A stretch of DNA of 64,000 bases from Candidatus Moraniibacteriota bacterium (GTDB lineage Bacteria; Patescibacteriota; Minisyncoccia; Moranbacterales; UBA1568): contig CAVURJ010000002.1 of NCBI GenBank assembly GCA_963743885.1, positions 305,706 to 369,705 on the forward strand, given 5' to 3'. A program made the position numbers and the translations under genes. Below, piece after piece: positions 10,834-58,809 of the stretch (positions within the stretch are counted from its first letter, which is position 1; each line of letters starts with the position of its first letter). Under the pieces are notes generated by a model. It saw nothing but the letters and a program-made list of their open reading frames with translations, was not told the DNA's origin and did not search any database.

Positions 10834-13800
10834 ATGCGAAAAAATCACGTGTTTTTTGTGAGTGTTTTTTTGGTAGCGTTTTTTTGCAATAGCAGCATCG
10901 CTTCGGCGTATTATCAGGATGATGACGGTAGGTATATCGTCAATGAGGATGAGACATGGAACAAAGATAATACATATGTTTTTGATCACGAGGTCGTGGT
11001 CGATATGGGAGCAAAATTGATCATCGAGCCCGGTACAACAATCTCTTTTAGGCGTGATGATAATGGTGATGCGGTGCCGTTCAGTGTCTATGATGGCCAA
11101 GTACAGGCAATTGGGACCGAAACAGAGCCGATCGTATTCAGGCGCGAAGGCGATGATGGCGCATTCTATATTAATTTCGATGACGGAAGTAATAAGACGT
11201 CTGTTTTTAAGTACGTACGTTTTCTTGAGGGGGGTGACGCGTGGTATGTCGATGCCTGTACGGATTGTCAACAGTCGCTTTTTGAGGGTTTTTTTGTTCA
11301 TCGAGCCATGGCAGCGCAGCAAAAGGCGGGAACAGAAACGCTGAGATATTCATATGGAAAACTATTGATAGAGAACTCGGTCTTCTCGAAGAGCGCATTC
11401 ATGGATGTTTGGGCGCAAGAATCTGGAATTGGTGACATTTTTGATGAAGATGGGAAGGTCATAGGAAAAGATCCTGCGCGTCTCAATATTAGTAATTCTG
11501 ACTTTAGTGGTGACACGACGGTGCCAGCGTTGCAGGTGTATGATTCCCATTGTCCATTTGCTGATCCGAATTGCCTGAAGAAGATCACATTTAATAATAA
11601 TTGGTACAGTTCACCGAGCGGCCCGAACGCGACAAGCAATTCTCAGGGGACCGGAAAACAGGTTATCGGTGCCATCAATCTCAATGGTTGGAGCACGAGC
11701 CAATTCTTTTGTTTGGAGAATTGTCATTCGAGTGTGATGTTTCTGCCAGGATTCGAGGGGAGTAGGCTGCTTGAAGGTTCACAGCAGGTATGGGAACCAA
11801 GGGCTAATTTTGACGTGGAAAGACTGTATCTCGATAAGGGTAACAATATTTCCGTAGGAGGTATCATAGACGAGGTAAATATAACTCCGGTTACTGGTAT
11901 AGTAAACATTTACAAGACATTTGTTCGGCGGATGGATGCCATGAAGAATATTGACCACCTTATAAAGGATTGGAAGCCCGTGGCGTATGATTGGCGCCTT
12001 TCGTACGATGAAATACTTGCTGACGCATCGATTGAGAACTCCTTGAGAGATCTTGCTCTGAATTCGAATACTGGAAAAGTGACTATTGTCGCGCATTCGA
12101 ATGGCGGGTTACTTGCCAAGGCATTGATGAAGAAGATCGGCGATGCTGATACAGCGAAGCTGATTGATAAGGTTATTTTTGTGGCGGTCCCACAGGTCGG
12201 GACACCAGAGGCGATTATTGGGATGTTGAATGGCGAGAAGCAGGAAATCACACCGATGATGGATGAACGGACTGCTCGGGGATTGTCGGAGAACATGCCG
12301 GGAGCGTATCAATTGCTTCCATCAGATGAATATTTTTCGGTCGTACAGACTCCGGTTGTGACGTTTGATATTTCTGATAGTTCTGATTTGAAGGGGCGCT
12401 ATGGTGATAAAATAGAATCAAAGGGAGGACTGGATGATTTTCTCGATGATGGCCATAGGCGGGTATCGGCGATTGATGATGATATCCATACGCCGTCGAG
12501 TCTGAAGGGGAATCTTATAGACGCCGCAAAGAATGTGCATAGCTCGCTGGATGGTTGGGATGCTCCTGATGGAGTGAGAGTGGTCCAAATTGCTGGTTGG
12601 GGAGTGCCATCGACTACCAAAGGAGTAGAATACTTTTCAGAAAAGAAAAAGCATTGCGATGAATCGCTTTGTACTACGGCGGATTATCTGCGGTTAGGAG
12701 ACATCGATTCTACCATTGATGGTGATGGTACGGTGGTGTTTCCGAGCGCACTGTATATGGACGGTGGGGCAGAGAGGTATTATGTTGATTTGGCGGGATA
12801 TAATAAATCGCTTGATAGAATTTCTAATCTCCAGCTTTTAGGAATTGATCATAAAAATATTCTTGAAATTCCAGAACTCACCTCTTTTATAGTGGATTCT
12901 GTTTCTAAAAATCTGAAACCTATTGCTGATTATGATTATCTTTCGACAGAAATTCCGGATTCTGATGATGAAAATCGTATCCAGTATTCACTTCATTCAC
13001 CGCTTACTCTTGATTTATATGATGATCAGGGTCGGCATACTGGCGTGACGGCTGACGGGATTATCGAAGAGAAGATTCCAGGAACGTATTATAAACAGTT
13101 TGGTGACGTGAAGTTCATTTTCGCTGACGAGTCTTCTTCGATGCATGTCTCGATGAGTGGGTATGCCGCCGGGACATTCACGTTTTCCGTGAAGGAATTG
13201 CACGGTGACACGGAGCTCGGGGAGGTTGTATTCAAGGATATGCCGACGACCTCAGAGACCGAAGTGACCTTCGATATGCCGAGCGATCTCGCGCACGCTG
13301 GTGATTTGCATATTGATGTGGATGGGGATGAGGCGGTTGATTATCAGTTGCAGCCGAAAATAGGCGAAGTGGTGACGTTTGGAGAAAAAGACGAAATTGC
13401 CCCGACGACAACTCTTTCGCTCTTTGGTACCCAGGGAACGAATGGTTGGTATACGAGTGATGTGACAGTCACGCTCTCGGCTACGGACAATGATGGTGGC
13501 AGTGACATCGAAAAAAAGGAATACTCTCTCGATAATGGCACGACTTGGACCGCGTATGCCGATTCGTTCGTAGTCTCGACCGAAGGCACGATGACTCTCC
13601 AATATCGCTCCATCGACAAAGCTGGCAATCAGGAAGAGATGAAGACTGAAACCGTAAAGATCGACAAAATCAAGCCAATCATCACGGGGACAGCTCTTCC
13701 GGCTGCCGATGCGAACGGATGGAATACTACTGATGTTGAGGTACGTTTCGTCTGTACTGACAGTGGAGTGAGTCAGTCAGGCATTGAGACGGACATGGTA

Positions 13801-14475
13801 GCAGGGAGTACTCTGACATCAGAAGGCAAAGGGCAATCAGTGACGAATACGGGGGAATGTACCGACAAAGCTGGCAACCAGGCCATACTAGCAACGGTAT
13901 CGGGCATCAATATCGACAAAACCGCCCCGGAAGCGAAGATATCCTTCAATCCGACCACGCAGAAGCTTGATATATCAGGAACAGACAATCTTTCAGATGT
14001 TTCCGTCACTCTCCTCGAAAAACAAGAACTGACGCCATCAAATAAGAAGGTGAAGAAGATCAAAGACTGGTTCTCAAAGTGGCACGGCAAGCACAAGAAG
14101 AATCTTCCAGATATGCTCGCTACTATCACGGACCAGGCTAGTCATACTACGAGTCTTTCTTTCGAGAAGCAAGAAAACAAAGGAAATGCCTTTGTTCGCC
14201 TTCTCTCTATAGAGTATGATGGAGAGGAAGAAAATATCCTGAGAAACGCCTCTCTCGGCTATACCTGGCGCATAGACCGGAAGGGCCAGTATTTGGACTT
14301 TTCTTCATCGCTGATTACGGAGGATATTCGTCTTTTTTCCACCTACCTCTCTAAGCAGGATCGGACACTTATCCTGGAGCAGGAGAGGCGCCATCTTCTT
14401 CGTTTGACGAGCGTTGATGGGATGACAGTGCCATATCTGGAGAGTGAGAAAGGAAAAATGAAATTTGAGTATTAA
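10834..14475 (+). CDS. large secreted LCAT/PGAP1-like lipase-domain protein with beta-helix-like N-region and C-terminal Ig-like/conserved module (paralog P1)
   Basis: signal peptide; YDWR motif; nucleophile elbow VAHSNGG (AHSxG lipase variant); DGDGTV acid motif; YSLDNGTTW...YRSIDKAGNQEE beta-sandwich motif; last ~330 aa ~85-95% nt-identical to 42900-43965. Confidence 0.75.
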   Translation: MRKNHVFFVSVFLVAFFCNSSIASAYYQDDDGRYIVNEDETWNKDNTYVFDHEVVVDMGAKLIIEPGTTISFRRDDNGDAVPFSVYDGQVQAIGTETEPIVFRREGDDGAFYINFDDGSNKTSVFKYVRFLEGGDAWYVDACTDCQQSLFEGFFVHRAMAAQQKAGTETLRYSYGKLLIENSVFSKSAFMDVWAQESGIGDIFDEDGKVIGKDPARLNISNSDFSGDTTVPALQVYDSHCPFADPNCLKKITFNNNWYSSPSGPNATSNSQGTGKQVIGAINLNGWSTSQFFCLENCHSSVMFLPGFEGSRLLEGSQQVWEPRANFDVERLYLDKGNNISVGGIIDEVNITPVTGIVNIYKTFVRRMDAMKNIDHLIKDWKPVAYDWRLSYDEILADASIENSLRDLALNSNTGKVTIVAHSNGGLLAKALMKKIGDADTAKLIDKVIFVAVPQVGTPEAIIGMLNGEKQEITPMMDERTARGLSENMPGAYQLLPSDEYFSVVQTPVVTFDISDSSDLKGRYGDKIESKGGLDDFLDDGHRRVSAIDDDIHTPSSLKGNLIDAAKNVHSSLDGWDAPDGVRVVQIAGWGVPSTTKGVEYFSEKKKHCDESLCTTADYLRLGDIDSTIDGDGTVVFPSALYMDGGAERYYVDLAGYNKSLDRISNLQLLGIDHKNILEIPELTSFIVDSVSKNLKPIADYDYLSTEIPDSDDENRIQYSLHSPLTLDLYDDQGRHTGVTADGIIEEKIPGTYYKQFGDVKFIFADESSSMHVSMSGYAAGTFTFSVKELHGDTELGEVVFKDMPTTSETEVTFDMPSDLAHAGDLHIDVDGDEAVDYQLQPKIGEVVTFGEKDEIAPTTTLSLFGTQGTNGWYTSDVTVTLSATDNDGGSDIEKKEYSLDNGTTWTAYADSFVVSTEGTMTLQYRSIDKAGNQEEMKTETVKIDKIKPIITGTALPAADANGWNTTDVEVRFVCTDSGVSQSGIETDMVAGSTLTSEGKGQSVTNTGECTDKAGNQAILATVSGINIDKTAPEAKISFNPTTQKLDISGTDNLSDVSVTLLEKQELTPSNKKVKKIKDWFSKWHGKHKKNLPDMLATITDQASHTTSLSFEKQENKGNAFVRLLSIEYDGEEENILRNASLGYTWRIDRKGQYLDFSSSLITEDIRLFSTYLSKQDRTLILEQERRHLLRLTSVDGMTVPYLESEKGKMKFEY

Positions 14476-14491
14476 TTTAAAAAATATTTTT

Positions 14492-14902
14492 ATGGAAAAG
14501 TTTTGGACAAAAAAAAAGATTTTTTTTGTAGCATTTTTCGGTGTTATTTTCTTTTCTGTATCTATTTTTTCTAGGGAAATTTCTTTGTGTCCCTCATATA
14601 GTTATAGTGATTGTGCTGAGTTTTTTGATAATTTTGCTAAAATACTTTTTCCCTTTCTTTTTCTCTTTTTCTTCTCCCTCGTCACGTATTTTATGAAGGA
14701 AGAAGTTTTTCAGGCTTGGTTCCGTCTCGTCCGCATCTATATACCTGGATCCATATTTCTTATCCTTCTTGCCCCGTCCTATAGTAGTAATTGGATGTTC
14801 CCGTATGACAAGGGTATGGCGGCCGTTATCGCGTCTGTTGGCTTTATCATCGTTTCGATTATTAATATCACCTGGTCCTACAGACGGACGAAACAAAAAT
14901 AA
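14492..14902 (+). CDS. small polytopic membrane protein (type A partner; SLVTYFMKEEVFQAWFR motif); annotated from first ATG, track ORF begins at TTG 14465 overlapping P1 stop
   Basis: K-rich N-terminus followed by 3-4 hydrophobic helices; motif shared with 45058 and 46429 proteins. Confidence 0.55.
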   Translation: MEKFWTKKKIFFVAFFGVIFFSVSIFSREISLCPSYSYSDCAEFFDNFAKILFPFLFLFFFSLVTYFMKEEVFQAWFRLVRIYIPGSIFLILLAPSYSSNWMFPYDKGMAAVIASVGFIIVSIINITWSYRRTKQK

Positions 14903-14987
14903 CGGGTATTAACCCGATTTTACTGGCGCTCCGTTCGAAAACAAAAGTAAACTTTTGTTTCACTCACTACACTTGGTAATAGAAATT
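14898..14987 (+). repeat. copy B (minimal, ~90 nt) of repeated structured intergenic element, ending 1 nt before the PfkB kinase ATG
   Basis: cgggt-atta-acccg hairpin; covarying stem aaacaaaagt/acttttgttt; 3' ttggtaatagaaatt. Confidence 0.55.
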
Positions 14988-40047: not shown

Positions 40048-40395
40048 ATGTTGCTACTGAAATGGTTAGTCAGCACTCTTGCGTTCCTCGCGCTGCCACA
40101 CATCGTGCCGGGCATTTCAGTCGAGGGTTTCGGGACAGCGCTCGTCCTCGCACTCTTTTGGGGGCTTATGAATATCACGATCAAGCCGATCCTGACAATT
40201 CTCACGCTGCCAATCAATCTTCTTACCTTCGGTATCTTCACCTTCGTCGTCAACGGCTTCCTGCTCTGGCTCCTCGCGGGCATTATCAAGGGCTTCGCCG
40301 TGAAGGGCTTCTGGATCGCCGTCCTGGGTGGCCTGGTCCTCTCCGCCATCCACACGCTGACGCATTGGGCGCTCAGCCATCATCCAAGCGAATGA
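40048..40395 (+). CDS. DUF360 / phage-holin-4-like small membrane protein (YvlD-like)
   Basis: LPHIVPGISVEGFGTALVLALFWGLMNITIKPIL...FVVNGFLLWLLAGII pattern, 3-4 TM, 115 aa. Confidence 0.55.
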   Translation: MLLLKWLVSTLAFLALPHIVPGISVEGFGTALVLALFWGLMNITIKPILTILTLPINLLTFGIFTFVVNGFLLWLLAGIIKGFAVKGFWIAVLGGLVLSAIHTLTHWALSHHPSE

Positions 40396-40482: not shown

Positions 40483-40752
40483 ATGATTATATCTGGATCT
40501 GAAATTGATATAGTTATCACTTCTTTCGCGTATCTGTTTCTTTTGATTGTGGCAATAGCGTGGCTTGTAGTCTGTTTTCGTCGGGATAAACGTTACATCG
40601 GATTGTTGGGTGCCTCTATTCTTCTGAACGTGCTGTCTTTTCTATATTTTCTTGGGAAAACCCCATATTGGATCGGGTATTTTAATCTTTTTATATGGCC
40701 AGTTTTAAATATCGTCTTCGTTCTTAGATATTTTTTGCAGAAAAATAATTAA
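40483..40752 (+). CDS. hypothetical small membrane protein (89 aa), 13 nt upstream of paralog P2
   Basis: 2-3 hydrophobic segments; AT-rich. Confidence 0.4.
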   Translation: MIISGSEIDIVITSFAYLFLLIVAIAWLVVCFRRDKRYIGLLGASILLNVLSFLYFLGKTPYWIGYFNLFIWPVLNIVFVLRYFLQKNN

Positions 40753-40764
40753 GATGTTTGAAAT

Positions 40765-43700
40765 ATGCTCAAAAAAATAATTTTTGTAGCATTTATAATG
40801 GTGGTTCTTGTGGGAGCCGTCGTTCCTTTTTCTGTTGATTTTACGCTTCTTTATTCTTCAGCTGATGATGAATATACTGAGATTCTTGAGGATACTGAAT
40901 GGTCTGGCGAGATGACTATCGGTGGTTATGTTTGGATTGATCCAGAAGCTACACTAACCATAAAGAAAGGTTCCGTACTTATAATCAAGGGTGGAACTTT
41001 TTTTGATGTGAATGGGAAGATTTCTTTTGATGGGACAGTTAAGGATCCGGTGGTGATACGGAAAGAATCGTCTGGTTCAAACGAGGGATATTCGATCGCC
41101 GCTAATGGAGCTGGTCGTATAAATATTCGTAATGCTGATATAAGCGGTGGCGGTAGTGCAATAGATGCTGTTCTTGTAAAAAGGAAGCGATCCTTTTTAC
41201 AAACCGTATTTGCGACGATATTTTATTCTGGAGCAATCAGCGTTCATGATAGTGGATCGTTTGTCGCCGAAGGAGTGAATTTTCATGATAATACTGTCGC
41301 TGTCCATGTTGATCGAAATGAGTATTCTTATAATGATGATGTTGTCGTGAATCGGTCTAAGTTTTCGGACAATGTTTATGATGTAGTAAATGTCGATTCG
41401 GCGCAGTTTGATTTTCGATATAACTGGTGGGGTAATGTGTCTGGTCCGGAATCATGTTTGGATTCCGAGGAATGCGGGTCAAGACAGTTTAAAAAAATTA
41501 GAGGGGATGCGAATATCACTGACTGGGCAAAAGAAGAAGATTTCAGAGACCCAGTGATTATTGTACCTGGTATTGTCGGATCTACCATGAAAGATGGGAA
41601 ATTAGAGTTGGATCAAATACTCCATACCTACGATAATCTTTACGCGTCTTTCGTTGCTAATGGTTATCTACAAGAGAAGAATCTTTTTGTCTTTCCATAT
41701 GAATGGCGTGATAGCAATATAGATAACGCAGTGCTTCTTAAGGAAAAAATAGATGAAATAAAGCAATCCATGCATTGGCCAAAAGTTGATATCGTAGCTC
41801 ATTCTATGGGCGGGCTTTTGACAAGACAATATCTCGAGTCTGGTGGGTATCAACAGGATATTGATCAGCTGATAACAATAGGCACTCCGCAGAGGGGCTC
41901 TCCGGCGGCATATTTGACGTGGGGCGGCGGAAAAATCGGCCCGAGTTTTTCTGATATTATTGTGGGGCTTATTTTTGATCAAGAAGCCAGAAAGAATGGG
42001 TACAAGGATATATTTGATTACGTCAGGAATCGGCCCATACTTTCAGTTAAAGAACTTCTACCAGAATATAGCTATCTTCATGATGCGTTAAATAGTGACG
42101 AAACAAGGGTGTACCCATCCAATTATCCGAGAAATGAATTTCTTGAGAATCTCAATGTTTTACAAAATAAAGAACACTTGGATGATGTTGAATTTAGTAA
42201 AATTGTAGGTAATATAAGGGATAATAAAACCATTTCCGGTATACGAACCGTAAATAATGGAAATTATGCCATAGGAGAGCCATGGGAGCACGGATATCCG
42301 ATTGGATTCGAAATACCCGCTGGTGATAGGGGGTTGTTGTTTGGTGATGGAGACGGTACTGTTCCATTGGAATCAGCGAGGTATTTAGATGGAATTTATA
42401 ATATCGAACTTGATTCTAGTCATAGAAGCCTTCCTACGGATGCCCAGAGTGATGTTTTGAGTATTTTAACTGGAACATCGCCGGAAATTATTGTGGATAG
42501 GGGGATAGTGGAAGACATTCTTATCGCTCGTGCTTTTTCTCCTATTGATATCCAGATTATTTCTCCCTCAAAGAAAAGGATTGGTAAGAATTTTGAGACG
42601 GGAGGCGTATATGATGAGATTCCTGGTGCATATTACACCGGATACGATACGAAATCTGAGTTCATTACCATCCCTAATCCAGAAGATGGAGAATACAAGA
42701 TTTTGACTCGGGGGACGGACACTGGAAGCTATCGTATAGAAGTGGCTAAAATTGTTGAGGATGGAGATGGCAGCACGAAGGAGTCCGCAGTGTCATTCGC
42801 CGGAACGGCCGTTTTGGATGCGGAAGAGGAGACAGTCGTGATGGTTGAAGGTGATGAGGTATTTTCTGGCGGGATAAAAGATGAAACCGCTCCGATAACG
42901 ACAGCCTTGCTCTCTGGTACCCAAGGAACGAGCGGCTGGTATACGGGTGAGGTGATGGTGGCGTTCTCGGCTACGGACAATGATGGCGGCAGTGGCATCG
43001 ACAAAACTGAATACTCTCTCGATAACGGAGTAAATTGGATTGCATACGCCGACCCATTTACAATTTCGACCGAGGGCACAACGACCTTCCAATATCGTTC
43101 CATCGACGAAGCCGGTAATCAAGAAGAAGCGAAGACGGAAATCATTAAGATCGATAAAACTAAGCCGATTATCACGGGAACAACTCTTTCAGTGGCCGAT
43201 GCGAACGGATGGAATACTACTGATGTTGAGGTGCGTTTTACCTGTACCGACAGCGGACTGAGCCAGTCCGGTATCGAGACAGACACGGTGGCAGGTGGCA
43301 CTCTGACATCAGAAGGAAAAGGGCAATCATTGACGAATACAGGGGTATGTACTGACAAGGCAGGTAACCAGGCTGCTCCAACAACCGTATCGGGTATTAA
43401 TATCGACAAAGCCTCCCCTGAAGCGAAAATATCCTTCAATCCAACCACGCAGAAGCTTGATATATCAGGAACAGACAATCTTTCAGATGTTTCCGTCATC
43501 ATCCTCGAAAAACAAGAACTGACACCAGCAAACAAGAAAGTAAAGAAGATCAAAGACTGGTTCTCTCGTTGGCACAACAGGCATAAGAAGGACCTCCCAG
43601 ATATGCTTGCTACCATCACAGATCAATCTGGCCGCACTACAGCACTTTCTTTTGAGAAGCGGGAGAACAAAGGCAGTATCTTTGCCCACCTGCTTTCCTT

Positions 43701-43965
43701 GGAGTATGATGGAGGAGAGGAAAAGATCCTGAATGAAGCTTCCCTCGGCTACGCCTGGCATACGGATAAGAGAGGGCGCTACATTGATTTCTCCTCATCT
43801 CTCTCCGTAGAAGATTCCCGCCTCATGTCTACGTATCTTCAGAGGCAGGATAGAACAATCATTCTAGAGCAGGTGAGGCGTCGTCTTCCGAAACTGACAA
43901 GCGAGGAGGGGATGGTGGTGCCGTATATGGAGAGTCAGAAAGGAAGTATTGGTATAAAGCATTAA
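40765..43965 (+). CDS. large secreted LCAT/PGAP1-like lipase-domain protein (paralog P2) with conserved C-terminal module
   Basis: signal peptide; FPYEWRDS (DWR-type motif); VAHSMGG nucleophile elbow; GDGDGTVPLESA; YSLDNGVNW...YRSIDEAGNQEE; C-terminal ~330 aa near-identical to P1. Confidence 0.75.
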   Translation: MLKKIIFVAFIMVVLVGAVVPFSVDFTLLYSSADDEYTEILEDTEWSGEMTIGGYVWIDPEATLTIKKGSVLIIKGGTFFDVNGKISFDGTVKDPVVIRKESSGSNEGYSIAANGAGRINIRNADISGGGSAIDAVLVKRKRSFLQTVFATIFYSGAISVHDSGSFVAEGVNFHDNTVAVHVDRNEYSYNDDVVVNRSKFSDNVYDVVNVDSAQFDFRYNWWGNVSGPESCLDSEECGSRQFKKIRGDANITDWAKEEDFRDPVIIVPGIVGSTMKDGKLELDQILHTYDNLYASFVANGYLQEKNLFVFPYEWRDSNIDNAVLLKEKIDEIKQSMHWPKVDIVAHSMGGLLTRQYLESGGYQQDIDQLITIGTPQRGSPAAYLTWGGGKIGPSFSDIIVGLIFDQEARKNGYKDIFDYVRNRPILSVKELLPEYSYLHDALNSDETRVYPSNYPRNEFLENLNVLQNKEHLDDVEFSKIVGNIRDNKTISGIRTVNNGNYAIGEPWEHGYPIGFEIPAGDRGLLFGDGDGTVPLESARYLDGIYNIELDSSHRSLPTDAQSDVLSILTGTSPEIIVDRGIVEDILIARAFSPIDIQIISPSKKRIGKNFETGGVYDEIPGAYYTGYDTKSEFITIPNPEDGEYKILTRGTDTGSYRIEVAKIVEDGDGSTKESAVSFAGTAVLDAEEETVVMVEGDEVFSGGIKDETAPITTALLSGTQGTSGWYTGEVMVAFSATDNDGGSGIDKTEYSLDNGVNWIAYADPFTISTEGTTTFQYRSIDEAGNQEEAKTEIIKIDKTKPIITGTTLSVADANGWNTTDVEVRFTCTDSGLSQSGIETDTVAGGTLTSEGKGQSLTNTGVCTDKAGNQAAPTTVSGINIDKASPEAKISFNPTTQKLDISGTDNLSDVSVIILEKQELTPANKKVKKIKDWFSRWHNRHKKDLPDMLATITDQSGRTTALSFEKRENKGSIFAHLLSLEYDGGEEKILNEASLGYAWHTDKRGRYIDFSSSLSVEDSRLMSTYLQRQDRTIILEQVRRRLPKLTSEEGMVVPYMESQKGSIGIKH

Positions 43966-43992: not shown

Positions 43993-44355
43993 ATGAGAAA
44001 AAATATATTTTTATTAGTGATGTTTGTTTGTGGACTGATTGGTATGGGAATTGATTATTTTAATTTAATAAATTTCCATTTAGGAGATGTGCTGTCGAAT
44101 ATCTCATTTTCTTTGATCGTAACTTCCATCATCATTTTTATTGGAAATGATTTGATGTTCCATTTCTGGCTCAAGTTTTTCTGTTGGTGGTTTGTGATCT
44201 CTGTGGTTTTTATTTTCATTTCTCCTGCGGGTATAGGTGGATTTTTTCCATCCATGTTTACAAAAGAGCTTGTTTCTTTGTGGGTGGGTATAGTCCTCGT
44301 TCTGATGAGCCTTTTCATGATTATTCGAGAATCTTATAAGTCTCGTAAACAGTAG
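43993..44355 (+). CDS. small polytopic membrane protein (type B partner, 120 aa)
   Basis: 4 hydrophobic helices, C-terminal basic tail; 28 nt after P2. Confidence 0.5.
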   Translation: MRKNIFLLVMFVCGLIGMGIDYFNLINFHLGDVLSNISFSLIVTSIIIFIGNDLMFHFWLKFFCWWFVISVVFIFISPAGIGGFFPSMFTKELVSLWVGIVLVLMSLFMIIRESYKSRKQ

Positions 44356-44365
44356 GATGAAAAAC

Positions 44366-44396
44366 CAAAACAAGGGCTTAAGTCCTTGTTTTTTTA
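44366..44396 (+). terminator. cassette-boundary terminator aaacaagggc-ttaa-gtccttgtttttt
   Basis: stem + T-run; related to hairpins at 46112 and 46805. Confidence 0.55.
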
Positions 44397-45014
44397 TGTA
44401 CCGATAAAGCTGGCAACCAGGCCGTACCAGCGACTGTGTCGGGTATCAACATTGATAAAATCGCTCCAGAAGCCAAAATATCCTTCAATCCAACCACGCA
44501 GAAACTCGATATATCCGGCATGGATAATCTCTCGGATGTTTCCGTTGTTACTATCGACAAGCCCGAGATGAATTCTTCAAACAAGAAGGTGAAGAAAATC
44601 AAGGACTGGTTCTCCGTCTGGCATGGTAGGCACAAGAAGAACCTTCCAGATATGCTTGCTACCATCACAGACCAGGCTGGCCATACTACAGCACTTTCTT
44701 TTGAGAAGCGGGAGAACAAAGTCAGTATCTTTGTCCGCCTGCTTTCCTTGGAGTATGATGGAGGAGAGGAAAAGAGCCTGAAGGATGCTTCTCTCGGTTA
44801 TGCCTGGCATACGGATAAGAGAGGGCGCTACATTGATTTCTTCTCATCTCTCTCCGTAGAAGATTCCCGTCTCATATCCACGTATCTTCAGAGGCAGGAT
44901 AGGACAATCATTTTGGAGCAGGTGAGGCGTCATCTTCCGAAACTAATAAGCGAGGAGGGGATGATGGTGCCGTATATGGAGAGTAATGCAGGAGAGGCGG
45001 AGATAAAGTATTAA
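44397..45014 (+). pseudogene. orphan C-terminal cassette F1: last ~205 codons of the P1/P2 lipase genes, begins abruptly after a terminator in the CTDKAGNQA motif, no ATG start (track ORF uses GTG at 44436)
   Basis: ~93-95% nt identity to 43350-43965; upstream end more P1-like (tgtaccgacaaagctggcaaccaggcc). Confidence 0.6.
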
Positions 45015-45057
45015 ATAGAATAAAAAGTTTAAATCAAAAAGAGTATGACAAAAAAAT

Positions 45058-45456
45058 GTGTTTTTGTTGTCACTTGCTTATATTTTGTATGTTGTAGTGC
45101 TCATGGTTATAAGCGCGAATTGTACGGTATCTCATGGCTGGTGCAATATTCGTGAGGATGACCCATTTGGTATGATAATCTTTATTTTCATGCCGTTCCT
45201 TCCGATGTTTTTCCTTTCCCTCATCACTTACAAAATGAAAGAAGAGGCCTTCCAGGCTTGGTTTCGCTTCGCTCTCTGGTTCGTGCCGATTATTATGGTT
45301 ATGATGTATCTCCTGAATGGATCGGGACAAAGTGGAATGGGGATTAGTGGGGCGGTTTCTCGCTCATTCGATTTTCTTGTTATCAGTATCTTCTACGTTA
45401 TTTTTATTGTAGTCTCTCTAATCAGGGTCGCTCTTGCGTACAAGCGGGCAAGGTAG
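45058..45456 (+). CDS. small polytopic membrane protein (type A partner; SLITYKMKEEAFQAWFRF motif); start uncertain (GTG 45058 or ATG 45103)
   Basis: homologous to 14492 and 46429 proteins. Confidence 0.5.
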   Translation: MFLLSLAYILYVVVLMVISANCTVSHGWCNIREDDPFGMIIFIFMPFLPMFFLSLITYKMKEEAFQAWFRFALWFVPIIMVMMYLLNGSGQSGMGISGAVSRSFDFLVISIFYVIFIVVSLIRVALAYKRAR

Positions 45457-45464
45457 AATTAGGA

Positions 45465-45490
45465 AACCAGGGGATTTCCCCTGGTTTTTT
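45465..45490 (+). terminator. terminator aaaccagggg-attt-cccctggtttttt
   Basis: 9-bp perfect stem + T-run. Confidence 0.55.
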
Positions 45491-45499
45491 AATAGAGTC

Positions 45500-45685
45500 T
45501 ATCTTGATACAGAGCTCCGTCTCAAGGAAAAATCTAGATTGAAAGCGGAGTATCGGAAACAGAAGAATGAGACAAAGATAACGGAGAAGGATAAGGAAGA
45601 AAAGACAAAGACCGTAATAACAAGGTCGGGTTTGGTGTCTGTCAATGTAGAGACGAAGGCGGGGGATATAATTTGGGGATATTAA
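45500..45685 (+). pseudogene. possible degenerate tail cassette F2 (no ATG; ends ...VSVNVETKAGDIIWGY)
   Basis: position in array and weak tail resemblance (xESxxGxxxIxY); low confidence. Confidence 0.25.
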
Positions 45686-45705: not shown

Positions 45706-46104
45706 ATGTTTAAAAAAATATTTGGAAGCGTAATTCTATCGTCTTGGGTGTATATTTTTTGGGCGCTTTCTTTGAGGAATGATTATCCATCGGCTTGCAT
45801 CCCAATCGGTATTCAGGAATTGACGAATATATGCGAGGCCACAGCACAGTATCTGCTTGTCTTTGTGCCGATGGGTGTATTTTTTGTGATATTAGCTATT
45901 TGGAATAATGAGATATATAAAAAATGGGAGAAGTTCACACTTATATTTTTAGGATTATATTTTATTATATTTTTTGTGCTTACCCCAACGGACGCTCCTG
46001 ATTTTGTTCCTTTTTATAAGGAAACAGTGGCTATTTGGGGAATGATACTGTATGCAGTAATATCTATGGTGCATATAGCGTACCTGAAATTAAAGAAGAT
46101 CTGA
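45706..46104 (+). CDS. small polytopic membrane protein (type C, 132 aa from first ATG; track ORF begins at TTG 45673)
   Basis: K-rich N-terminus then 4 TM helices. Confidence 0.45.
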   Translation: MFKKIFGSVILSSWVYIFWALSLRNDYPSACIPIGIQELTNICEATAQYLLVFVPMGVFFVILAIWNNEIYKKWEKFTLIFLGLYFIIFFVLTPTDAPDFVPFYKETVAIWGMILYAVISMVHIAYLKLKKI

Positions 46105-46140: not shown

Positions 46141-46193
46141 TATATACTGAAAGTAAATCCCACTATATCCCAAGGAAAGATGAGACCTGGATC

Positions 46194-46376
46194 ATGGAGA
46201 AGTCCGAAACATTGAAGGATGACGACCAGGATGAAGAAAATAGGTGTGGCCATGACGAGAACGATAGATGCGGCGATGAGCATGAAGACAATGGTCGGCC
46301 AGTCAGAGTGAAACTTCCTGGTATGGTAATTCCGTATTTGGAGAGTGTTAAAGGGAGTGTGGGGATAAAATACTAA
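46194..46376 (+). pseudogene. orphan tail cassette F3: acidic 60-aa ORF ending PGMVIPYLESVKGSVGIKY (C-terminal 20 aa of P2)
   Basis: tail identity with P2 (GMVVPYMESQKGSIGIKH); upstream part unrelated and acidic. Confidence 0.4.
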
Positions 46377-46428
46377 ATAATAAAGCTAAATTTAATAATA
46401 TGTCGACAAAAAAAATATACTAGTATTT

Positions 46429-46797
46429 TTGGGAGTTTTGGTACTAGCTGCTCTTTTTTCTACAGAAGAGTTGCAGTTTTGTTGGTTTATCGGATTAAGG
46501 GAATGCCCTATTCACTTGGATGATTCTCAGGAGTCGCTATTTTTTCCATTTATTGTAATGTTTTTTCTTTCCCTCATCACCTACAAAATGAAAGATGAAG
46601 TCTTTCAAGCTTGGTTTCGTTTCGCTCTTTGGTTTGTGCCGATCATCATGTTTTTCCAGTTCGTCTTCATGAATTCTAGCGGCGGAGGAAGCATCGGAAA
46701 CAATGACTTCGCCATTTTCTTCACCTCGCTTTTCTATATCGCTTTCGTCCTCGTCTCTCTCATCAAGATCGTCCGGGCGTACAAGCGGACGAGATAG
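46429..46797 (+). CDS. small polytopic membrane protein (type A partner; SLITYKMKDEVFQAWFRF motif); TTG start in track, true start uncertain
   Basis: 76% identical segment to 45058 protein. Confidence 0.5.
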   Translation: MGVLVLAALFSTEELQFCWFIGLRECPIHLDDSQESLFFPFIVMFFLSLITYKMKDEVFQAWFRFALWFVPIIMFFQFVFMNSSGGGSIGNNDFAIFFTSLFYIAFVLVSLIKIVRAYKRTR

Positions 46798-51310: not shown

Positions 51311-52241
51311 ACTCATCTCCATCGTCATACCGGTCTATAACGAGGAAAAGAACATTCCTGTCATCACCGACGAGATTGGGAAGGTGTTCACGTCGCTTCC
51401 GGAGTACGGATACGAGATCATCTTCGTCAACGATGGGAGCCGGGACAATAGTTTCCTCACTATCTACGACCTTTCGCAGAAGGATTCCCGCGTGAAGGGG
51501 ATCGATTTTTCGAGGAACTTTGGCAAGGAGTGTGCTACTTCAGCCGGCTGTCACTATGCGACTGGCGATGCCGTGATCACGATGGACGCCGACCTCCAGC
51601 ACCCGCCGGTGCTCATACCGGAGCTCTTGGCACATTGGGAAAAGAGCGCCGAAGTGGTCTATACTGTGCGCAAAGAGAATAAGGGTGCAGATCTGATCAA
51701 GAAGCTGACCTCGGTGCTCTATTATTGGCTTTTCAACAAGGTGTCGTCGATAACGACCGAGCCGCGATCGACTGATTTCCGATTGATCGACAAGAAAGTC
51801 GTTGATGTTTTCCGGAAGTTTCCGGAGCGTGAGCGCATGTTCCGCGGTATGATCGACTGGATGGGATTCAAGCGCGCGAAGGTGGAGTTCGTCGCTCCCG
51901 AGAGGCTACATGGTGAGGCTGGGTATTCATACATCAAGCTCTTTCAGCTGGCGATGAACAGCTTCACGTCGTTTTCGCTCCTGCCGCTCAAGATGGCTGG
52001 GTATTTCGGAGTCATCATCACGACGATTAGTGGACTCCTGCTCGCGACGATGCTCATCACTCGCTGGTTCTTCGATCCGGCTCTCTTCACGCCGATTGCT
52101 ATCCTTGGCGTGAGCAACATGTTCTTGATTGGCATCGTACTGATTTCTCTGGGCTTCATCGCCCTTTACATCGCCCGCATCCACAATGAAGTGATCAACC
52201 GCCCGCTCTATATCGTGCGGGAGAAGGCGAATATAATTTAA
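51303..52241 (+). CDS. GT2 polyprenyl-phosphate glycosyltransferase (DPM1/GtrB/ArnC-like) with two C-terminal TM helices
   Basis: ISIVIPVYNEEKNI, FVNDGSRDNS, DADLQHPP; C-terminal TM pair. Confidence 0.8.
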   Translation: MSKLISIVIPVYNEEKNIPVITDEIGKVFTSLPEYGYEIIFVNDGSRDNSFLTIYDLSQKDSRVKGIDFSRNFGKECATSAGCHYATGDAVITMDADLQHPPVLIPELLAHWEKSAEVVYTVRKENKGADLIKKLTSVLYYWLFNKVSSITTEPRSTDFRLIDKKVVDVFRKFPERERMFRGMIDWMGFKRAKVEFVAPERLHGEAGYSYIKLFQLAMNSFTSFSLLPLKMAGYFGVIITTISGLLLATMLITRWFFDPALFTPIAILGVSNMFLIGIVLISLGFIALYIARIHNEVINRPLYIVREKANII

Positions 52242-52264
52242 AAAAGAGTACTTGAAGTTGTTCT

Positions 52265-53092
52265 ATGGTTGAGAATTCTAGTCCAAAAATTTCCGTTTTG
52301 ATGACGGTTTATAATTCTGAGAAATTCCTTGAATCAGCTATTTCGAGTGTTTTGCAACAGACTTTTACTGATTTTGAACTCGTCATTCTTGATGATTGTT
52401 CAGCAGACTCAAGTTGGAGTATCGTAGAGCGTTTTGCAGCGCAAGATACAAGAATAGTAGCGATTAAAAATGAAAAAAACCTTGGTGGTTGTGAGAATTT
52501 GAATAAAGGACTCCGTTTGCTGAGAGGGAAATATATGGCTCGTCATGATAATGATGACGTGTCGCTCCCAGATCGCTTGCAGAAACAATTCGATTTTTTG
52601 GAAGCGCATCCTGAGGTGGGGATAGTGGGCGGTTCCATCGAAATAGTTGATGTCGATGGAAAAAAAATCGGCAAAAGGACTTATAATCTTTCCGATAGCG
52701 ATATTCGTAGAAAAATTTTTCGATATAGCCCTTTTGCTCATCCGTTGGTGATGATGAGAAAATCCATACTTGATCAAGTAGGGTGTTTTTATAATGCCTC
52801 TTTTGCTCCAGCTGATGATTATGAGCTCTGGTTCCGCATGGGTAAGATCACGAAATTTGCCAATCTCCCGGACGTTCTTTTGAAATATCGAGTAGTGCCC
52901 GGATCAATCACTCTCAGCTCTACAAAAAAGATGGAGCTGACGACTATTCGCGTTCGTGATAAATATCGTACCGATGATTTTTATCAGTTTACCTGGGTTG
53001 ATGCGGTTTATAATATGCTGCACAAGCTTTCGATATATATTTTTCCATCAAAATTGAAGATAGACCTCTATAATTATTTCCGCAACGAATAG
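52265..53092 (+). CDS. GT2 family glycosyltransferase
   Basis: ISVLMTVYNSEKFL, LDDCSAD, HDNDD. Confidence 0.8.
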   Translation: MVENSSPKISVLMTVYNSEKFLESAISSVLQQTFTDFELVILDDCSADSSWSIVERFAAQDTRIVAIKNEKNLGGCENLNKGLRLLRGKYMARHDNDDVSLPDRLQKQFDFLEAHPEVGIVGGSIEIVDVDGKKIGKRTYNLSDSDIRRKIFRYSPFAHPLVMMRKSILDQVGCFYNASFAPADDYELWFRMGKITKFANLPDVLLKYRVVPGSITLSSTKKMELTTIRVRDKYRTDDFYQFTWVDAVYNMLHKLSIYIFPSKLKIDLYNYFRNE

Positions 53093-53103
53093 CTATTGTG
53101 ATT

Positions 53104-53868
53104 ATGAAGAATCAGGTCGTTCTTATTACTGGAGGAGCTTCTGGCTTGGGCAAAGAAATAGCCCTTGAATTTGGGCGCAAAGATTATGTCGTTTACTGCA
53201 CGTCGCGGAAAGATGAATCTTCGGATCAGGAAAATATCCATTTTTTAAAAATGGATATTACGTCCGATGCCGATGTGAAGACGTCTGTTGATCAGGTGAT
53301 GACGCGGGAAGGACGGATCGACATTGTCGTAAATAATGCCGGGATGACGCTATCTGGTCCCACGCTTGATTTTTCTTCTGAGGATTTTAAGACCATAGTT
53401 GATACGAATGCGATCGGATCATTCCGGCTTTTGAAAGGGATATTTCAATACCCTCAAAAGCCACGTATGGTGATCAATATCACCTCTCTTAATGGCTTCT
53501 TTTCGTTTCCGAATTTTGGCATATATTGTGCTTCAAAATTTGCGGCCGAAGCGTTGGGTCTAGCGCTCCGTTATGAGCTTGGCGCCACGACGCAAGTAGT
53601 GAATGTTTCGCCAGGAGCGCTTTTAGCAGAGTCGAGCAAGCCGATTTCTCACAAGACAGCGCGGGAGAAAATAAAAATCTTGAATTGGCTAATGCCGCTG
53701 ACTTCACAGAAAGATGTGGCGAAAAGGGTTGAAGCCTTGGCTCGTATGAAGCGGGTTCCTGCACAGCTCCGTATCGGCCGTGATACGCATATCATATACC
53801 TGATGCAGAAATTTTTGCCGAGTTTTATTTTTGATAGAATAATTTTTTATATTTGGACAAAAAAGTAG
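53104..53868 (+). CDS. SDR-family short-chain dehydrogenase/reductase
   Basis: VLITGGASGLGKEIA (TGxxxGxG), NNAG, YCASKFA (YxxxK). Confidence 0.75.
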   Translation: MKNQVVLITGGASGLGKEIALEFGRKDYVVYCTSRKDESSDQENIHFLKMDITSDADVKTSVDQVMTREGRIDIVVNNAGMTLSGPTLDFSSEDFKTIVDTNAIGSFRLLKGIFQYPQKPRMVINITSLNGFFSFPNFGIYCASKFAAEALGLALRYELGATTQVVNVSPGALLAESSKPISHKTAREKIKILNWLMPLTSQKDVAKRVEALARMKRVPAQLRIGRDTHIIYLMQKFLPSFIFDRIIFYIWTKK

Positions 53869-53920
53869 TGTTTTCACTGGTTTAATTTAGGAAATAATTT
53901 CATTTAGAATAATTGAGAAT

Positions 53921-54940
53921 ATGTTTGAGAATCAAGTCATATTTGTATCCGGGGGAACAGGATCGTGGGGACATGAGCTGGTAAGACAGCTTCTTGAAAG
54001 ATTTTCCGATATAAAGGAGATTCGCATCTATTCGCGAGGGGAGCATAAGCAGGTTGAGATGAGGAGAGAATTCGGATTCAACCCCAAGTTGAAATTTATC
54101 ATCGGTGATATTCGTGATAAGAACATCCTTAATTACGCGATGAGCGGGGTTGATGTTGTTTTCCATTTGGCCGCATTGAAGCATGTCCCAGTCTGCGAGG
54201 AAAATACCTGGGAGGCCGTTCTTACGAATATCAACGGTACTCAGAATGTCATTGAAGCCGCAATCAATAACGGAGTCAAGAAGGTTATTGATGTTTCTAC
54301 CGATAAGGCTGTTGATCCGTTCAATCTCTATGGTGTTACAAAGGCCTGCGGGGAGAAGCTGATGATAAATGCCAATTTCAATTATTCTTTTGGTGATAAG
54401 GGGAGCAAGACGTCGTTTATCTGTATTCGTGGTGGTAACGTGATAGGGACAAACGGTAGCGTTATCCCACTCTTCAAGAAGCAGCTTTTGGAAAATAACG
54501 AGGTTACAGTGACTGATCCGACGATGACCCGGTTTCTTATGAGCACCAGGGAGGCTATCGGACTTATTTTTGCTGCCGTAGAGAAATCGATCGGCGGAGA
54601 GCTTTTTGTGATGAAGATGCCGGCTGCTACGGTCGAGACGGTTGCGAAGGTAATGATCCGGTTGTTTGGGAATGATGAGAGTAAGGTAAAGATCGTCGGT
54701 TCTCGGCCGGGAGAGAAGAAGCATGAGGTACTGGTTTCGAAGAATGAATCTCCAGCCGCCTATATTTTCTCGGATCAATATTTCGTTGTTCTTCCGCAGA
54801 TTCAAAATAGCGAGTTGGTTGGTATGTATACCGATAAGCAAAGGCTTGAGCATGAAGAGTTTAATTCGGAAAATACATATCGTTTGAGCGAAGATGAGCT
54901 AGAGGCCATCTTGAGGAAGGAAGATTGGTTGATGAGCTAG
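53921..54940 (+). CDS. UDP-N-acetylglucosamine 4,6-dehydratase-like (PseB/FlaA1/CapD family)
   Basis: VSGGTGSWGHEL, VFHLAALKHVP, DVSTDKAVDPFNLYGVTKACGEKL. Confidence 0.75.
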   Translation: MFENQVIFVSGGTGSWGHELVRQLLERFSDIKEIRIYSRGEHKQVEMRREFGFNPKLKFIIGDIRDKNILNYAMSGVDVVFHLAALKHVPVCEENTWEAVLTNINGTQNVIEAAINNGVKKVIDVSTDKAVDPFNLYGVTKACGEKLMINANFNYSFGDKGSKTSFICIRGGNVIGTNGSVIPLFKKQLLENNEVTVTDPTMTRFLMSTREAIGLIFAAVEKSIGGELFVMKMPAATVETVAKVMIRLFGNDESKVKIVGSRPGEKKHEVLVSKNESPAAYIFSDQYFVVLPQIQNSELVGMYTDKQRLEHEEFNSENTYRLSEDELEAILRKEDWLMS

Positions 54941-54970
54941 TGCGGAAATTTATAAGCCGACATAGAACAT

Positions 54971-55807
54971 ATGCTTGTTGGGATTACCGGGGCGCGAGGA
55001 TTTATCGGGGAGAATCTGATAAAGCGCTTAGACGTGGAGTCTATCCAGTATAAGATCTTGACAGGGGATCTACTTGATAGCGATGCCGTAGACAGTTTTG
55101 TTGACGGGTGTGATACAGTAGTACATCTGGCTGGTATTTTTAGCGATGATTTTCGAAAGCTTTTGGAAGCCAATCTTTTTGGCACCAGAAATCTTGTTGA
55201 GTCCTGCAAGAAATACAGAGTGGGGAAAATAGTTTTTTCTTCGACCGGAGCCGTATACGGCGAACCTGCCAATGATGGGATTTCAAAGGAGATCGATCCG
55301 CTTTTGCCCAACACCCTCTATGGTCTTTCCAAGCTTTACGCAGAAGAATATATAACTTTTTCTGGTGTTCCGTCGGTTATTCTGAGATTTCCAAATGTAT
55401 ATGGCCCAGGAAATGAAAAGGGTGTAGTCTTTAATTTTCTGAAGTCGATTCGTGAAAAAAAAGAAGTGACTATTTTTGGTTCTGGTGAACAGAAACGAAA
55501 TTTTCTTTTTGTGGATGATGCTGTGCAGTCTATTTTTTCATCGATTGAATATTCTGGTAGCGAAACGGTGTTCAATATCTCTGACAAAGCGATTTATAGC
55601 TTAAATGATGTTGTAGAAATTCTCAGAGAAAGCGGACTATCTTTCGATGTCAAATATCAGGCGGCCGATGAATCCAATGCGCTGCAGGTTCTTTCGGAAG
55701 ATATTTCTAAGGCTGAAAAAATATTGGGATGGACTCCAAAGATTAGCCTTGAGAGTGGCGTGAGAAAAATAATCAAAGCTATGGGGATTATCGATAGCGA
55801 GAAATAG
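54971..55807 (+). CDS. NAD-dependent epimerase/dehydratase family protein
   Basis: GITGARGFIG, YGLSKLYAEE (YxxxK). Confidence 0.7.
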   Translation: MLVGITGARGFIGENLIKRLDVESIQYKILTGDLLDSDAVDSFVDGCDTVVHLAGIFSDDFRKLLEANLFGTRNLVESCKKYRVGKIVFSSTGAVYGEPANDGISKEIDPLLPNTLYGLSKLYAEEYITFSGVPSVILRFPNVYGPGNEKGVVFNFLKSIREKKEVTIFGSGEQKRNFLFVDDAVQSIFSSIEYSGSETVFNISDKAIYSLNDVVEILRESGLSFDVKYQAADESNALQVLSEDISKAEKILGWTPKISLESGVRKIIKAMGIIDSEK

Positions 55808-55837
55808 GTGTTTTTAAATTATAAAATATAAAAAAGT

Positions 55838-56626: not shown

Positions 56627-56631
56627 CCTCT

Positions 56632-58793: not shown

Positions 58794-58809
58794 TGAGTTT
58801 TCTTGCAAT

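Follow-up and report, generated by a model that had tools for sequence, protein, structure and literature searches.

Evidence for repeated gene conversion confined to the C-terminal module of two paralogous predicted lipases in a Moranbacteria genome

The 64,000-nucleotide stretch of DNA analyzed here (hereafter, the window; positions 305,706 to 369,705 of the forward strand of contig CAVURJ010000002.1, GenBank assembly GCA_963743885.1, Candidatus Moraniibacteriota bacterium) contains two genes, denoted P1 and P2, for predicted exported lipases that are only distantly similar over most of their lengths and share a far more conserved C-terminal module. Each lipase gene is followed by a gene for a small protein with four predicted transmembrane segments (4-TM), and beyond the P2 pair lie three orphan fragments of lipase tails (F1, F2 and F3), each with a 4-TM gene of its own. 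Comparison of these sequences with 22 loci from other Moranbacteria metagenome-assembled genomes (MAGs), and with loci reached via the TM gene, makes a well-supported case for repeated gene conversion that is confined to the C-terminal module and in which the orphan copies take part. All named homologs come from Candidatus Moranbacteria/Moraniibacteriota, and the lipase family is restricted to Moranbacteria.

The two lipases and their shared module

The open reading frames (ORFs) of P1 and P2 are present as delimited in the first-pass annotation of the window, and the following features of the two genes are relevant here (Ig, immunoglobulin-like domain; CTD, C-terminal domain; pLDDT, predicted local distance difference test score):

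10834-14475, + strand: P1, 1213-aa predicted secreted LCAT-like serine hydrolase of the P1 type (AHSNGG), recognized from the ORF, Pfam and the catalytic triad
Motifs of P1, + strand: signal peptide, aa 1-25; nucleophile, 12091-12108; Asp motif, 12718-12735; His motif, 12844-12861
13390-13668, + strand: Ig1 of P1, OmpL47-type beta domain, the first domain of the shared module (NCBIfam NF047446)
13669-13947, + strand: Ig2 of P1, second Ig-like domain, delimited from alignments, module lengths and an AlphaFold2 (AF2) model (pLDDT 59-86, lower here)
13948-14472, + strand: CTD of P1, short form without the acidic insert, with three strands, a long basic amphipathic helix (KKVKKIKDWFSKWHGKHKK) and a 10-strand up-and-down beta meander
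13939-14068, + strand: putative youngest P1-P2 conversion patch, 93.1% identical to P2 43429-43558
40765-43965, + strand: P2, 1066-aa predicted secreted LCAT/PGAP1-like serine hydrolase of the P2 type (AHSMGG), with the C-terminal module at 42883-43962

Both proteins are recognized by the LCAT family of Pfam (PF02450; 49.8 bits for P1 and 60.8 bits for P2 at a gathering cut-off of 21). P2 additionally matches the PGAP1 and Lipase_2 families and, in the PDB, lysosomal phospholipase A2 (LPLA2, 4x90; E=1.2e-5) and Bacillus subtilis LipA; the PDB sequence search with P1 gave no match. The AHS[NM]GG and GD[GE]xV motifs and the His do not vary among the 22 relatives, of which 20-22 cover the motif concerned. 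The nucleophile elbow (AHSNGG or AHSMGG) and the DGDGTV motif that had been noted in the two proteins are present, whereas the YDWR motif attributed to both reads YEWR in P2. An N-terminal hydrophobic signal or anchor sequence is found in P1 and P2 and is kept across the family; Pfam gives no match for the N-terminal region that the first-pass annotation had described as beta-helix-like.

The lipase region falls into two deep clades, AHSNGG and AHSMGG. That of P1 is 64-65% identical to those of the full-length orthologs L003 and L007, and P2 belongs to the other clade. As judged from these alignments, P1 and P2 are anciently diverged paralogs of a predicted exported LCAT/PLA2-like lipase family, the N-terminal part of which (signal peptide, N-domain and Ser-Asp-His hydrolase) evolves vertically. 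The enzyme core is a predicted new member of the LCAT-like hydrolases: it shares with LCAT and lysosomal phospholipase A2 (PF02450) and with Bacillus LipA (Lipase_2) the alpha/beta-hydrolase type, the nucleophile within AHSxGG and the Asp and His residues, with Pfam scores above the gathering threshold and with P2 alignable to LPLA2 and LipA. In contrast to those enzymes, the P1/P2 family adds a large N-domain, an Ig stalk and a novel end domain, occurs only in Moranbacteria and, in the case of P1, is without a PDB match.

The first domain of the module scores above the NF047446 cut-off of 40 in both proteins (P1, 69.1 bits, aa 873-943; P2, 72.5 bits, aa 726-796). The AF2 model of the whole module has a pLDDT of 87, and that of the CTD alone a pLDDT of 94.4 and a predicted template modeling score (pTM) of 0.85. 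The best fold matches of the whole module are tandem-Ig adhesin stalks. The module resembles both the Leptospira OmpL47-type proteins, through Ig1, and the Ig-tandem adhesin stalks (GhpA, SiiE, intimin), through its fold, but P1 and P2 have only one or two such domains, which connect an enzyme to an end domain unrelated to them.

This end domain, the CTD, comprises ~185 residues, is all-beta, and has no sequence match in the PDB and no significant Foldseek match in the PDB or BFVD. A lipid-binding barrel was considered; the FABP-like/SAHS beta-barrel matches that Foldseek reports in the PDB are non-significant (best E 0.03, TM score ~0.2) and were not counted. The CTD is found in 114 cluster representatives of 1.84 billion by a full HMMER scan, compared to 7 matches in a single-sequence search and 35 in a profile search. 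The match reaches the extreme C-terminus in nearly all of these proteins, which, when complete, are ~850-1400 aa long.

The shared module begins at codon 853 of P1 and codon 707 of P2, and the junction coincides with the 5' edge of Ig1. Pairwise alignment bears out the sharp mosaic that was noticed on first inspection: up to P1 aa 852 and P2 aa 706, the proteins are 21-23% identical (21% in the lipase region, 23% in the pre-junction segment), and from there on, identity is 72-73% in Ig1 and the CTD (71-72% and 73% by domain, respectively) and 85% in Ig2, or ~75% overall from P1 codon 852 on. The corresponding DNA identity is lower than the 85-95% from codon 850 onward that was originally reported. 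In particular, blastn aligns 13405-14269 with 42898-43759 at 81.0% identity over 868 nt (E=0), the whole 3' 1096 nt to the stop codon are 76.5% identical, an identity of at least 85% is reached in only 14% of the 100-nt windows of the module, and the last ~330 nt are 53-70% identical. The 130-nt patch of high similarity that was originally pointed out, at 13939-14068, is genuine; it encompasses the longest exact match between the two genes (55 nt, at 13954/43444), the next-longest being 38 nt.

Gene conversion within the module

The synonymous divergence (dS) between P1 and P2 is saturated over the N-terminal 850 codons, amounts to 0.29-0.9 from the junction on, and is again saturated (1.84) in the last 95 codons, which are 61% identical at the protein level despite the saturated dS. 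By domain, dS is 0.87 in Ig1 and 0.67 in Ig2, with a range of 0.67-0.87 across both Ig domains and the beginning of the CTD, and the ratio of non-synonymous to synonymous divergence (dN/dS) in the module is 0.13-0.19. Both identity and dS therefore shift sharply at the junction, and divergence is not uniform along the two genes. Because dS is 0.67-0.87 in Ig1, Ig2 and the start of the CTD but saturated in the last 95 codons, more than one exchange has to be assumed, and a near-identical 3' third generated by one recent event, as proposed in the first-pass annotation, does not fit these values. The conversion history read from the substitution pattern is layered, with several nested events of different ages that are mostly old. 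The only tracts that appear young are the ~130-nt P1-P2 patch and the last ~330 nt of P2, which are shared with an orphan fragment:

44396-45014, + strand: F1, orphan 3' fragment comprising the end of Ig2 and a whole short-form CTD (tblastn, 82% to P2 and 73% to P1)

In the three-way alignment of P1, P2 and F1, P1 and P2 are 95-97% identical around 13930-14020, where F1 is 72-87% identical to either; conversely, over P2 ~43600-43930, P2 and F1 are 90-97% identical at the nucleotide level (dS 0.19), and P1 is 53-75% identical to either. The ratio of informative sites that unite P1 with P2 to those that unite P2 with F1 is 36:8 before alignment column 230 (~P1 14088) and 13:96 after it (maximum chi-square 70.3, reached in none of 10,000 permutations; p<1e-4). 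The P2-F1 similarity amounts to segmental transfer between a cassette and a full gene, which could have proceeded in either direction.

Comparison with the 22 related loci by neighbor-joining leads to the same conclusion. In Ig1 and the CTD, P1, P2 and F1 are mutually nearest, above all orthologs: the two lipases are 72-73% identical to each other and at most 68% and 62%, respectively, to any ortholog, and the relationship is reversed in the lipase region (21% between P1 and P2, 65% between P1 and L003). Two shared derived characters point in the same direction. In the CTD alignment, P1, P2 and F1 are the only sequences without a 17-residue acidic insert that all 20 others contain; P0050, a protein found later, is also without it. 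Ig2 is present in P1 and P2 (and, with its 3' end only, in F1) but, among more than 20 relatives, otherwise only in P0050 and P0002. The module grouping, the derived characters and the three-way site test all lend strong support to the early suggestion of recombination between the P1 and P2 loci and with the orphan cassettes.

The orthologs L003 and L007 show the opposite relation, with 78% identity in the lipase region and 62% in the CTD, which indicates that the module diverges faster between genomes and is homogenized within genomes. Similar mosaics are seen in other paralog pairs. In one MAG, L023 and L028 are 17% identical in the lipase region and 89% identical in Ig1, and in another one, the CTDs of L010 and L011 are 85% identical. 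Two further pairs, with co-residence in one genome unproven, are L003 and L016 (lipase region 48%, CTD 92%) and P0004 and P0005, which are dissimilar up to the same 'TPPVTT' junction and ~85% identical from there on.

Gene conversion among paralogs is a known process; what is new is its restriction to one domain block and its recurrence across Moranbacteria genomes, and also the uncharacterized end domain, the equally uncharacterized 4-TM partner family and the orphan tail-plus-partner arrays; literature searches brought up no account of any of these elements. As in the concerted evolution of surface-protein paralogs, copies within a genome are more alike than orthologs, the boundaries lie where homology ends, and there is an age gradient. 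Unlike in the usual cases, homogenization in P1 and P2 affects a single domain block of enzymes that are ~20% identical, recurs in several genomes of the candidate phyla radiation (CPR) and involves truncated orphans. Read conservatively, this is a clean, replicated case of domain-limited concerted evolution in reduced genomes.

The 4-TM partners and the orphan tail array

The features adjoining the lipase genes on the 3' side are:

14492-14902, + strand: P1 partner, 136-aa 4-TM protein of the 'PSYSxNWMFPYDKG' subtype, 100% identical to P0008; in frame, with A9 and T8 tracts near the 5' end
14903-14916, + strand: small terminator-like hairpin closing the P1-TM pair; weak (-7.4 kcal/mol, no better than shuffles)
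43993-44355, + strand: P2 partner, 120-aa 4-TM protein of a divergent subtype to which the L024 and L029 partners also belong
44367-44392, + strand: intrinsic-terminator-like hairpin with a T7 run, directly before F1 (-13.2 kcal/mol, z -2.15)
45045-45456, + strand: 4-TM gene after F1; an A7 tract, 45050-45056, shifts ATG 45045 out of the frame of the body (GTG 45058)
45458-45493, + strand: strong terminator hairpin with a T6 run, directly before F2 (-23.5 kcal/mol, z -4.06; 0/200 shuffles as stable)
45503-45685, + strand: F2, orphan tail fragment of a divergent type (…RSGLVSVNVETKAGDIIWGY) with no start codon where homology begins
45706-46104, + strand: 4-TM gene after F2, in frame, with an A7 tract; 66% to L010 2363-2758, dN/dS 0.18
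46182-46376, + strand: F3, orphan tail of the ancestral long form with the acidic insert kept; 47% to the L003 and L007 tails
46400-46797, + strand: 4-TM gene after F3; an A8 tract, 46408-46415, shifts ATG 46400 out of the frame of the body (TTG 46429), and A9 would restore the frame

The partner proteins are 120-145 aa long and have four predicted TM segments, basic N- and C-termini and a conserved loop (YKMKEEVFQAWWRF). A partner gene is located 3-50 nt downstream of the lipase gene in 15 of the 22 related loci, and the partner genes evolve under purifying selection (dN/dS 0.17-0.18). The P1 partner belongs, as had been recognized, to the same family as the TM genes that follow F1 (tblastn E=7e-12) and F3 (E=3e-14), the P2 partner is 43% identical by blastp to L024_4664, and the L028 partner matches all TM subtypes of the window, thus bridging them.

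The first-pass annotation described a coupled TM gene that overlaps the stop codon of P1. The conserved neighborhood stands, but translational coupling by overlap is unlikely, given that the overlapping start is a mechanically called TTG at 14465, whereas the likely start is ATG 14492, 16 nt past the P1 stop. The N-terminal sequence from this ATG, MEKFWTKKK, agrees with homolog N-termini (L011, MEKWVTKKN) and with P0008, and on the basis of this conservation, ATG 14492 was preferred over TTG 14465, even with AAGGA 10 nt upstream of the latter. The 16-nt spacer is A/T and unstructured; P1 and its partner are probably co-transcribed.

By the Mantel test, TM similarity follows that of the lipase domain (r=0.41, p=0.02) and, more weakly, that of the extreme tail (r=0.28, p=0.03), and does not track Ig1 or the first part of the CTD (CTD-a). 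That TM similarity follows the lipase domain and not Ig1 or CTD-a fits an internal conversion tract between vertically inherited flanks. Specific co-evolution of tail and TM protein was considered as well and was rejected, the correlation being weaker than that with the lipase domain.

Public annotation covers the TM protein of the window (P0008) and part of F1, as P0001, which starts at M28; exact-sequence look-ups of P1 and F1 gave no match. In JACPGV010000011 (L001/L011), the gene caller placed a 123-aa ORF on the minus strand (749-1120) over a conserved 142-aa 4-TM gene on the plus strand (689-1117), which suggests that the 4-TM family is under-annotated in databases. With respect to gene order, there is a parallel with the lipase-foldase operons of Pseudomonas and Burkholderia (lipA-lif), in which the gene for a secreted lipase is likewise followed at a short distance by that of a membrane partner. 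No homology is known, however: Lif, at ~340 aa, spans the membrane once and has a large helical domain in the periplasm, in contrast to the 120-145-aa 4-TM proteins described here.

Downstream of P2, the order is TM43993, terminator hairpin, F1, TM45058, strong terminator, F2, TM45706, F3 and TM46429. The mechanically called F2 ORF includes 45434-45500, a portion that is hairpin read as codons. F2 itself is 74% identical at the amino acid level to L010 2161-2334. Because 78% of the synonymous but only 14% of the non-synonymous sites differ between the two (Sd/S 0.78, Nd/N 0.14; Fisher p=1e-13, purifying selection), F2 is not a freely decaying pseudogene. The TM gene after F1 is 56% identical to L010 1150-1554 (58% over aligned codons, dN/dS 0.17), and that after F3 is 77-78% identical to L010 2782-3192 (proportions of differing synonymous and non-synonymous sites, pS 0.75 and pN 0.12). 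Comparable arrays are found in L010, with four orphan tail fragments accompanied by TM genes or TM-gene fragments, and in L007, with one fragment. The partner genes contain A7-A9 or T8 tracts in codons 3-6, and in 5 of 25 genes, a tract that is 1-2 nt shorter than the in-frame length of 9 puts the conserved ATG...KK start out of frame. Four of these five are located behind orphan tails, in assemblies from different projects (the sites include L022 ~7634, L007 ~5968 and L010 ~3300). This distribution suggests either slipped-strand phase variation or first-hit decay.

Interpretation and genomic setting

We consider it likely that P1 and P2 are old paralogs whose C-terminal module was homogenized by layered conversion, and that they encode exported lipases with putative roles in the use of host lipids, in display and in interaction with a membrane partner. 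An old event provided both genes with the rare two-Ig, short-CTD variant; a later conversion tract spans ~13405-14090, with the 13939-14068 patch as the youngest P1-P2 exchange; and the last ~330 nt of P2 were separately exchanged with the truncated orphan F1. The tract in P1 is internal, and the flanking lipase domain and TM gene retain orthologous affinities. As for function, the enzyme might reside outside the cell on its Ig stalk, attacking or harvesting membrane lipids of the host cell, and the end domain, with its cationic amphipathic helix, could be a membrane- or surface-binding module. The 4-TM protein might be a membrane partner that serves as a dock, product acceptor or self-protection factor, and the tail-plus-TM modules behind P2 could be what is left of displaced lipase genes, or else reserve copies, and would still act as conversion donors. 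CPR bacteria do not synthesize lipids and are enriched in lysolipids (PMC7242380; see also PMC12455944), and a role of these lipases in the use of host lipids would fit with that inability and enrichment. Moreover, CPR bacteria (Patescibacteria) are thought to take their membrane lipids from host cells (PMC7242380), and the lipase family is a concrete candidate for the enzymes and surface machinery involved. The uniformity of the module within genomes and its fast divergence between genomes, together with the selection on the tail modules, suggest that hosts or phages exert pressure on an interaction surface. Should this be the case, adaptation of the host interface of an epibiont becomes testable with existing metagenomic reads.

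Several observations weigh against this scenario. The trees of the module and of the lipase region are simple neighbor-joining trees without bootstrap. The old conversion could have run in either direction. P0050, a 1052-aa protein from another organism, carries the two-Ig/short-CTD module on a P2-type backbone. The N-terminal part of P0050 shows just 49.5% identity to P2, compared to 67-72% between its module and those of the window, and module exchange between genomes may therefore contribute. Also, a partner is missing beside 7 of the 9 P2-type lipases with flanking sequence, which implies that the 4-TM protein is not obligatory for module proteins. Finally, the P2 and F1 tails are nearly identical and have very different TM neighbors, which, together with the low Mantel correlation (r=0.28), disfavors a specific docking pair of tail and TM protein.

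Two explanations would dispense with recombination in the genome altogether. Under one of these, which we regard as extremely improbable, a single old duplication was followed by much stronger purifying selection on the module. The low dN/dS of the module and the 61% amino acid identity of the last 95 codons at saturated dS are compatible with such constraint, but the orthologs show the reverse, the module evolving faster than the lipase domain (L003/L007, 62% vs 78%). Constraint also does not account for paralog modules that are closer to each other than to those of orthologs, for the drop of dS from saturation to 0.3-0.9 at the junction, for the significant switch in site pattern or for the shared indel and domain insertion. 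An assembly artefact, that is, a chimeric join or repeat collapse, has to be considered for a MAG-type contig with a 55-nt exact repeat between the two loci; however, the copies are just 81% identical, with a next-longest exact match of 38 nt, and a chimeric join cannot yield graded similarity with several breakpoints. Furthermore, more than 20 independent assemblies share the lipase, module and TM architecture, and in a separate Logan assembly (run ERR12035942), the identical TM gene lies 16 nt beyond a partial ORF of 164 residues, with the spacing seen between the 3' end of P1 and its partner. An artefact is accordingly very improbable.

The two remaining rivals assign a different role to the orphan tails. 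If F1-F3 were silent donors that change the exposed tails of the lipases, with the TM partners switched by homopolymer slippage, the locus would be a site of cassette variation. The absence of the 5' gene part from F1 and F2, which lie directly behind terminator hairpins, the young P2-F1 tract, the strong selection on F2, which is startless at the homology start, the similar arrays in L010 and L007, the five out-of-frame TM genes from different projects, four of them behind orphan tails, and the faster divergence of the C-modules than of the enzyme between genomes are all consistent with this possibility. Nevertheless, there are three cassettes only, and the tails are all homologous and fairly similar. 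The frameshifted tracts would be explained just as well by incipient decay or by sequencing errors in homopolymers, and the constraint on F2 could stem from an F2-type full-length gene outside the window. On balance, such a locus seems unlikely; a dedicated contingency system, in which surface lipases of an episymbiont would re-assort their exposed C-module from silent tail cassettes, each with a tract-switched 4-TM partner, is rather unlikely. If it exists, such a system would be a mechanism of antigenic or host-range variation, and we found no report of this kind for Patescibacteria. Alternatively, the locus could be of the polymorphic toxin-immunity type, similar to contact-dependent inhibition (CDI) or Rhs loci, with the CTD as a membrane toxin, the TM protein as immunity and F1-F3 as displaced pairs, which appears quite improbable. 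The array of a full gene with a small gene followed by 3' fragments with upstream homology, each with a small gene (in the window, L010 and L007), the cationic amphipathic helix of the CTD and the location of relatives' loci among genes of a defence or mobile type (RadC, MutH, methylases, Fic) resemble such a system, and pore-forming colicins are known to have small immunity proteins with several TM segments. This reading fails because the variability is reversed, with a divergent N-terminus and a shared C-terminus, and no toxin family (in Pfam, NCBIfam, PADLOC or the PDB) or toxin fold (for the beta meander) is matched. In addition, all tails form one homologous family with a conserved C-terminal motif, the partner is missing at 7 of 22 loci, and the nearly identical P2 and F1 tails adjoin unrelated TM subtypes. 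PADLOC, run on nine proteins, yielded nothing beyond a 14-bit LmuA match for P1 (E=0.0083).

Compared with characterized systems, the homogenized lipase tails and their orphan copies share features with several. Orphan cdiA-CT/cdiI and Rhs-CT/immunity arrays similarly consist of a full gene with a small gene followed by 3' fragments with small genes, and recombine with the main gene; unlike in those arrays, the tails of P1 and P2 are homologous, the variable part is N-terminal, no family of toxins or immunity proteins is detected, the partner is frequently missing, and only a Sec signal is present. In silent-cassette variation (Neisseria pilE/pilS, Borrelia vlsE, Mycoplasma genitalium MgPar), the expressed gene of a surface protein receives segments from partial copies without promoters, a role that the truncated tails may share, and the open, selected frame of the cassettes is a further similarity; in contrast, there are few cassettes here, each is paired with a TM gene, and the enzyme part is unvaried. 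Literature searches retrieved no reports on lipases of Moranbacteria, on phase variation in CPR bacteria or on cassettes of this type.

Both the P1 and P2 loci are GC-poor islands (GC 0.40-0.46) within a backbone of housekeeping genes with a GC content of 0.52-0.60. In the window, the lipase-TM pair lies between the genes for enolase and a PfkB kinase. In the relatives (L002-L006, L017, L026, L012, L016), RadC, restriction-modification or Fic genes (MutH with a DNA methylase, HsdM, N6 methylase) are often located 3' of the lipase-TM pair, which suggests that the pair tends toward variable, defence-rich regions. Glycosyltransferase or polysaccharide genes are found near the lipase loci of several relatives. 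A 4-TM protein of the Phage_holin_4_2 family (PF04020) recurs near lipase loci, upstream of P2 in the window (40048-40395) and downstream of the lipase in L011 (1174-1518) and L014 (10937-11281), and may reflect conserved synteny or a functional link. An 89-aa hydrophobic ORF (40483-40752) that stops 12 nt before the P2 start shows no family match and no similarity to the 4-TM partner family.

Nine third-party annotation (TPA) MAGs that encode the lipase family (L012, L014-L017, L020, L024, L029 and L030) are titled 'uncultured Bdellovibrionales bacterium', which is probably a taxonomic mislabel. Finally, region 52000-62000 of the window is a long GC-poor stretch (0.36-0.45) of co-oriented ORFs with a composition unlike that of the backbone.

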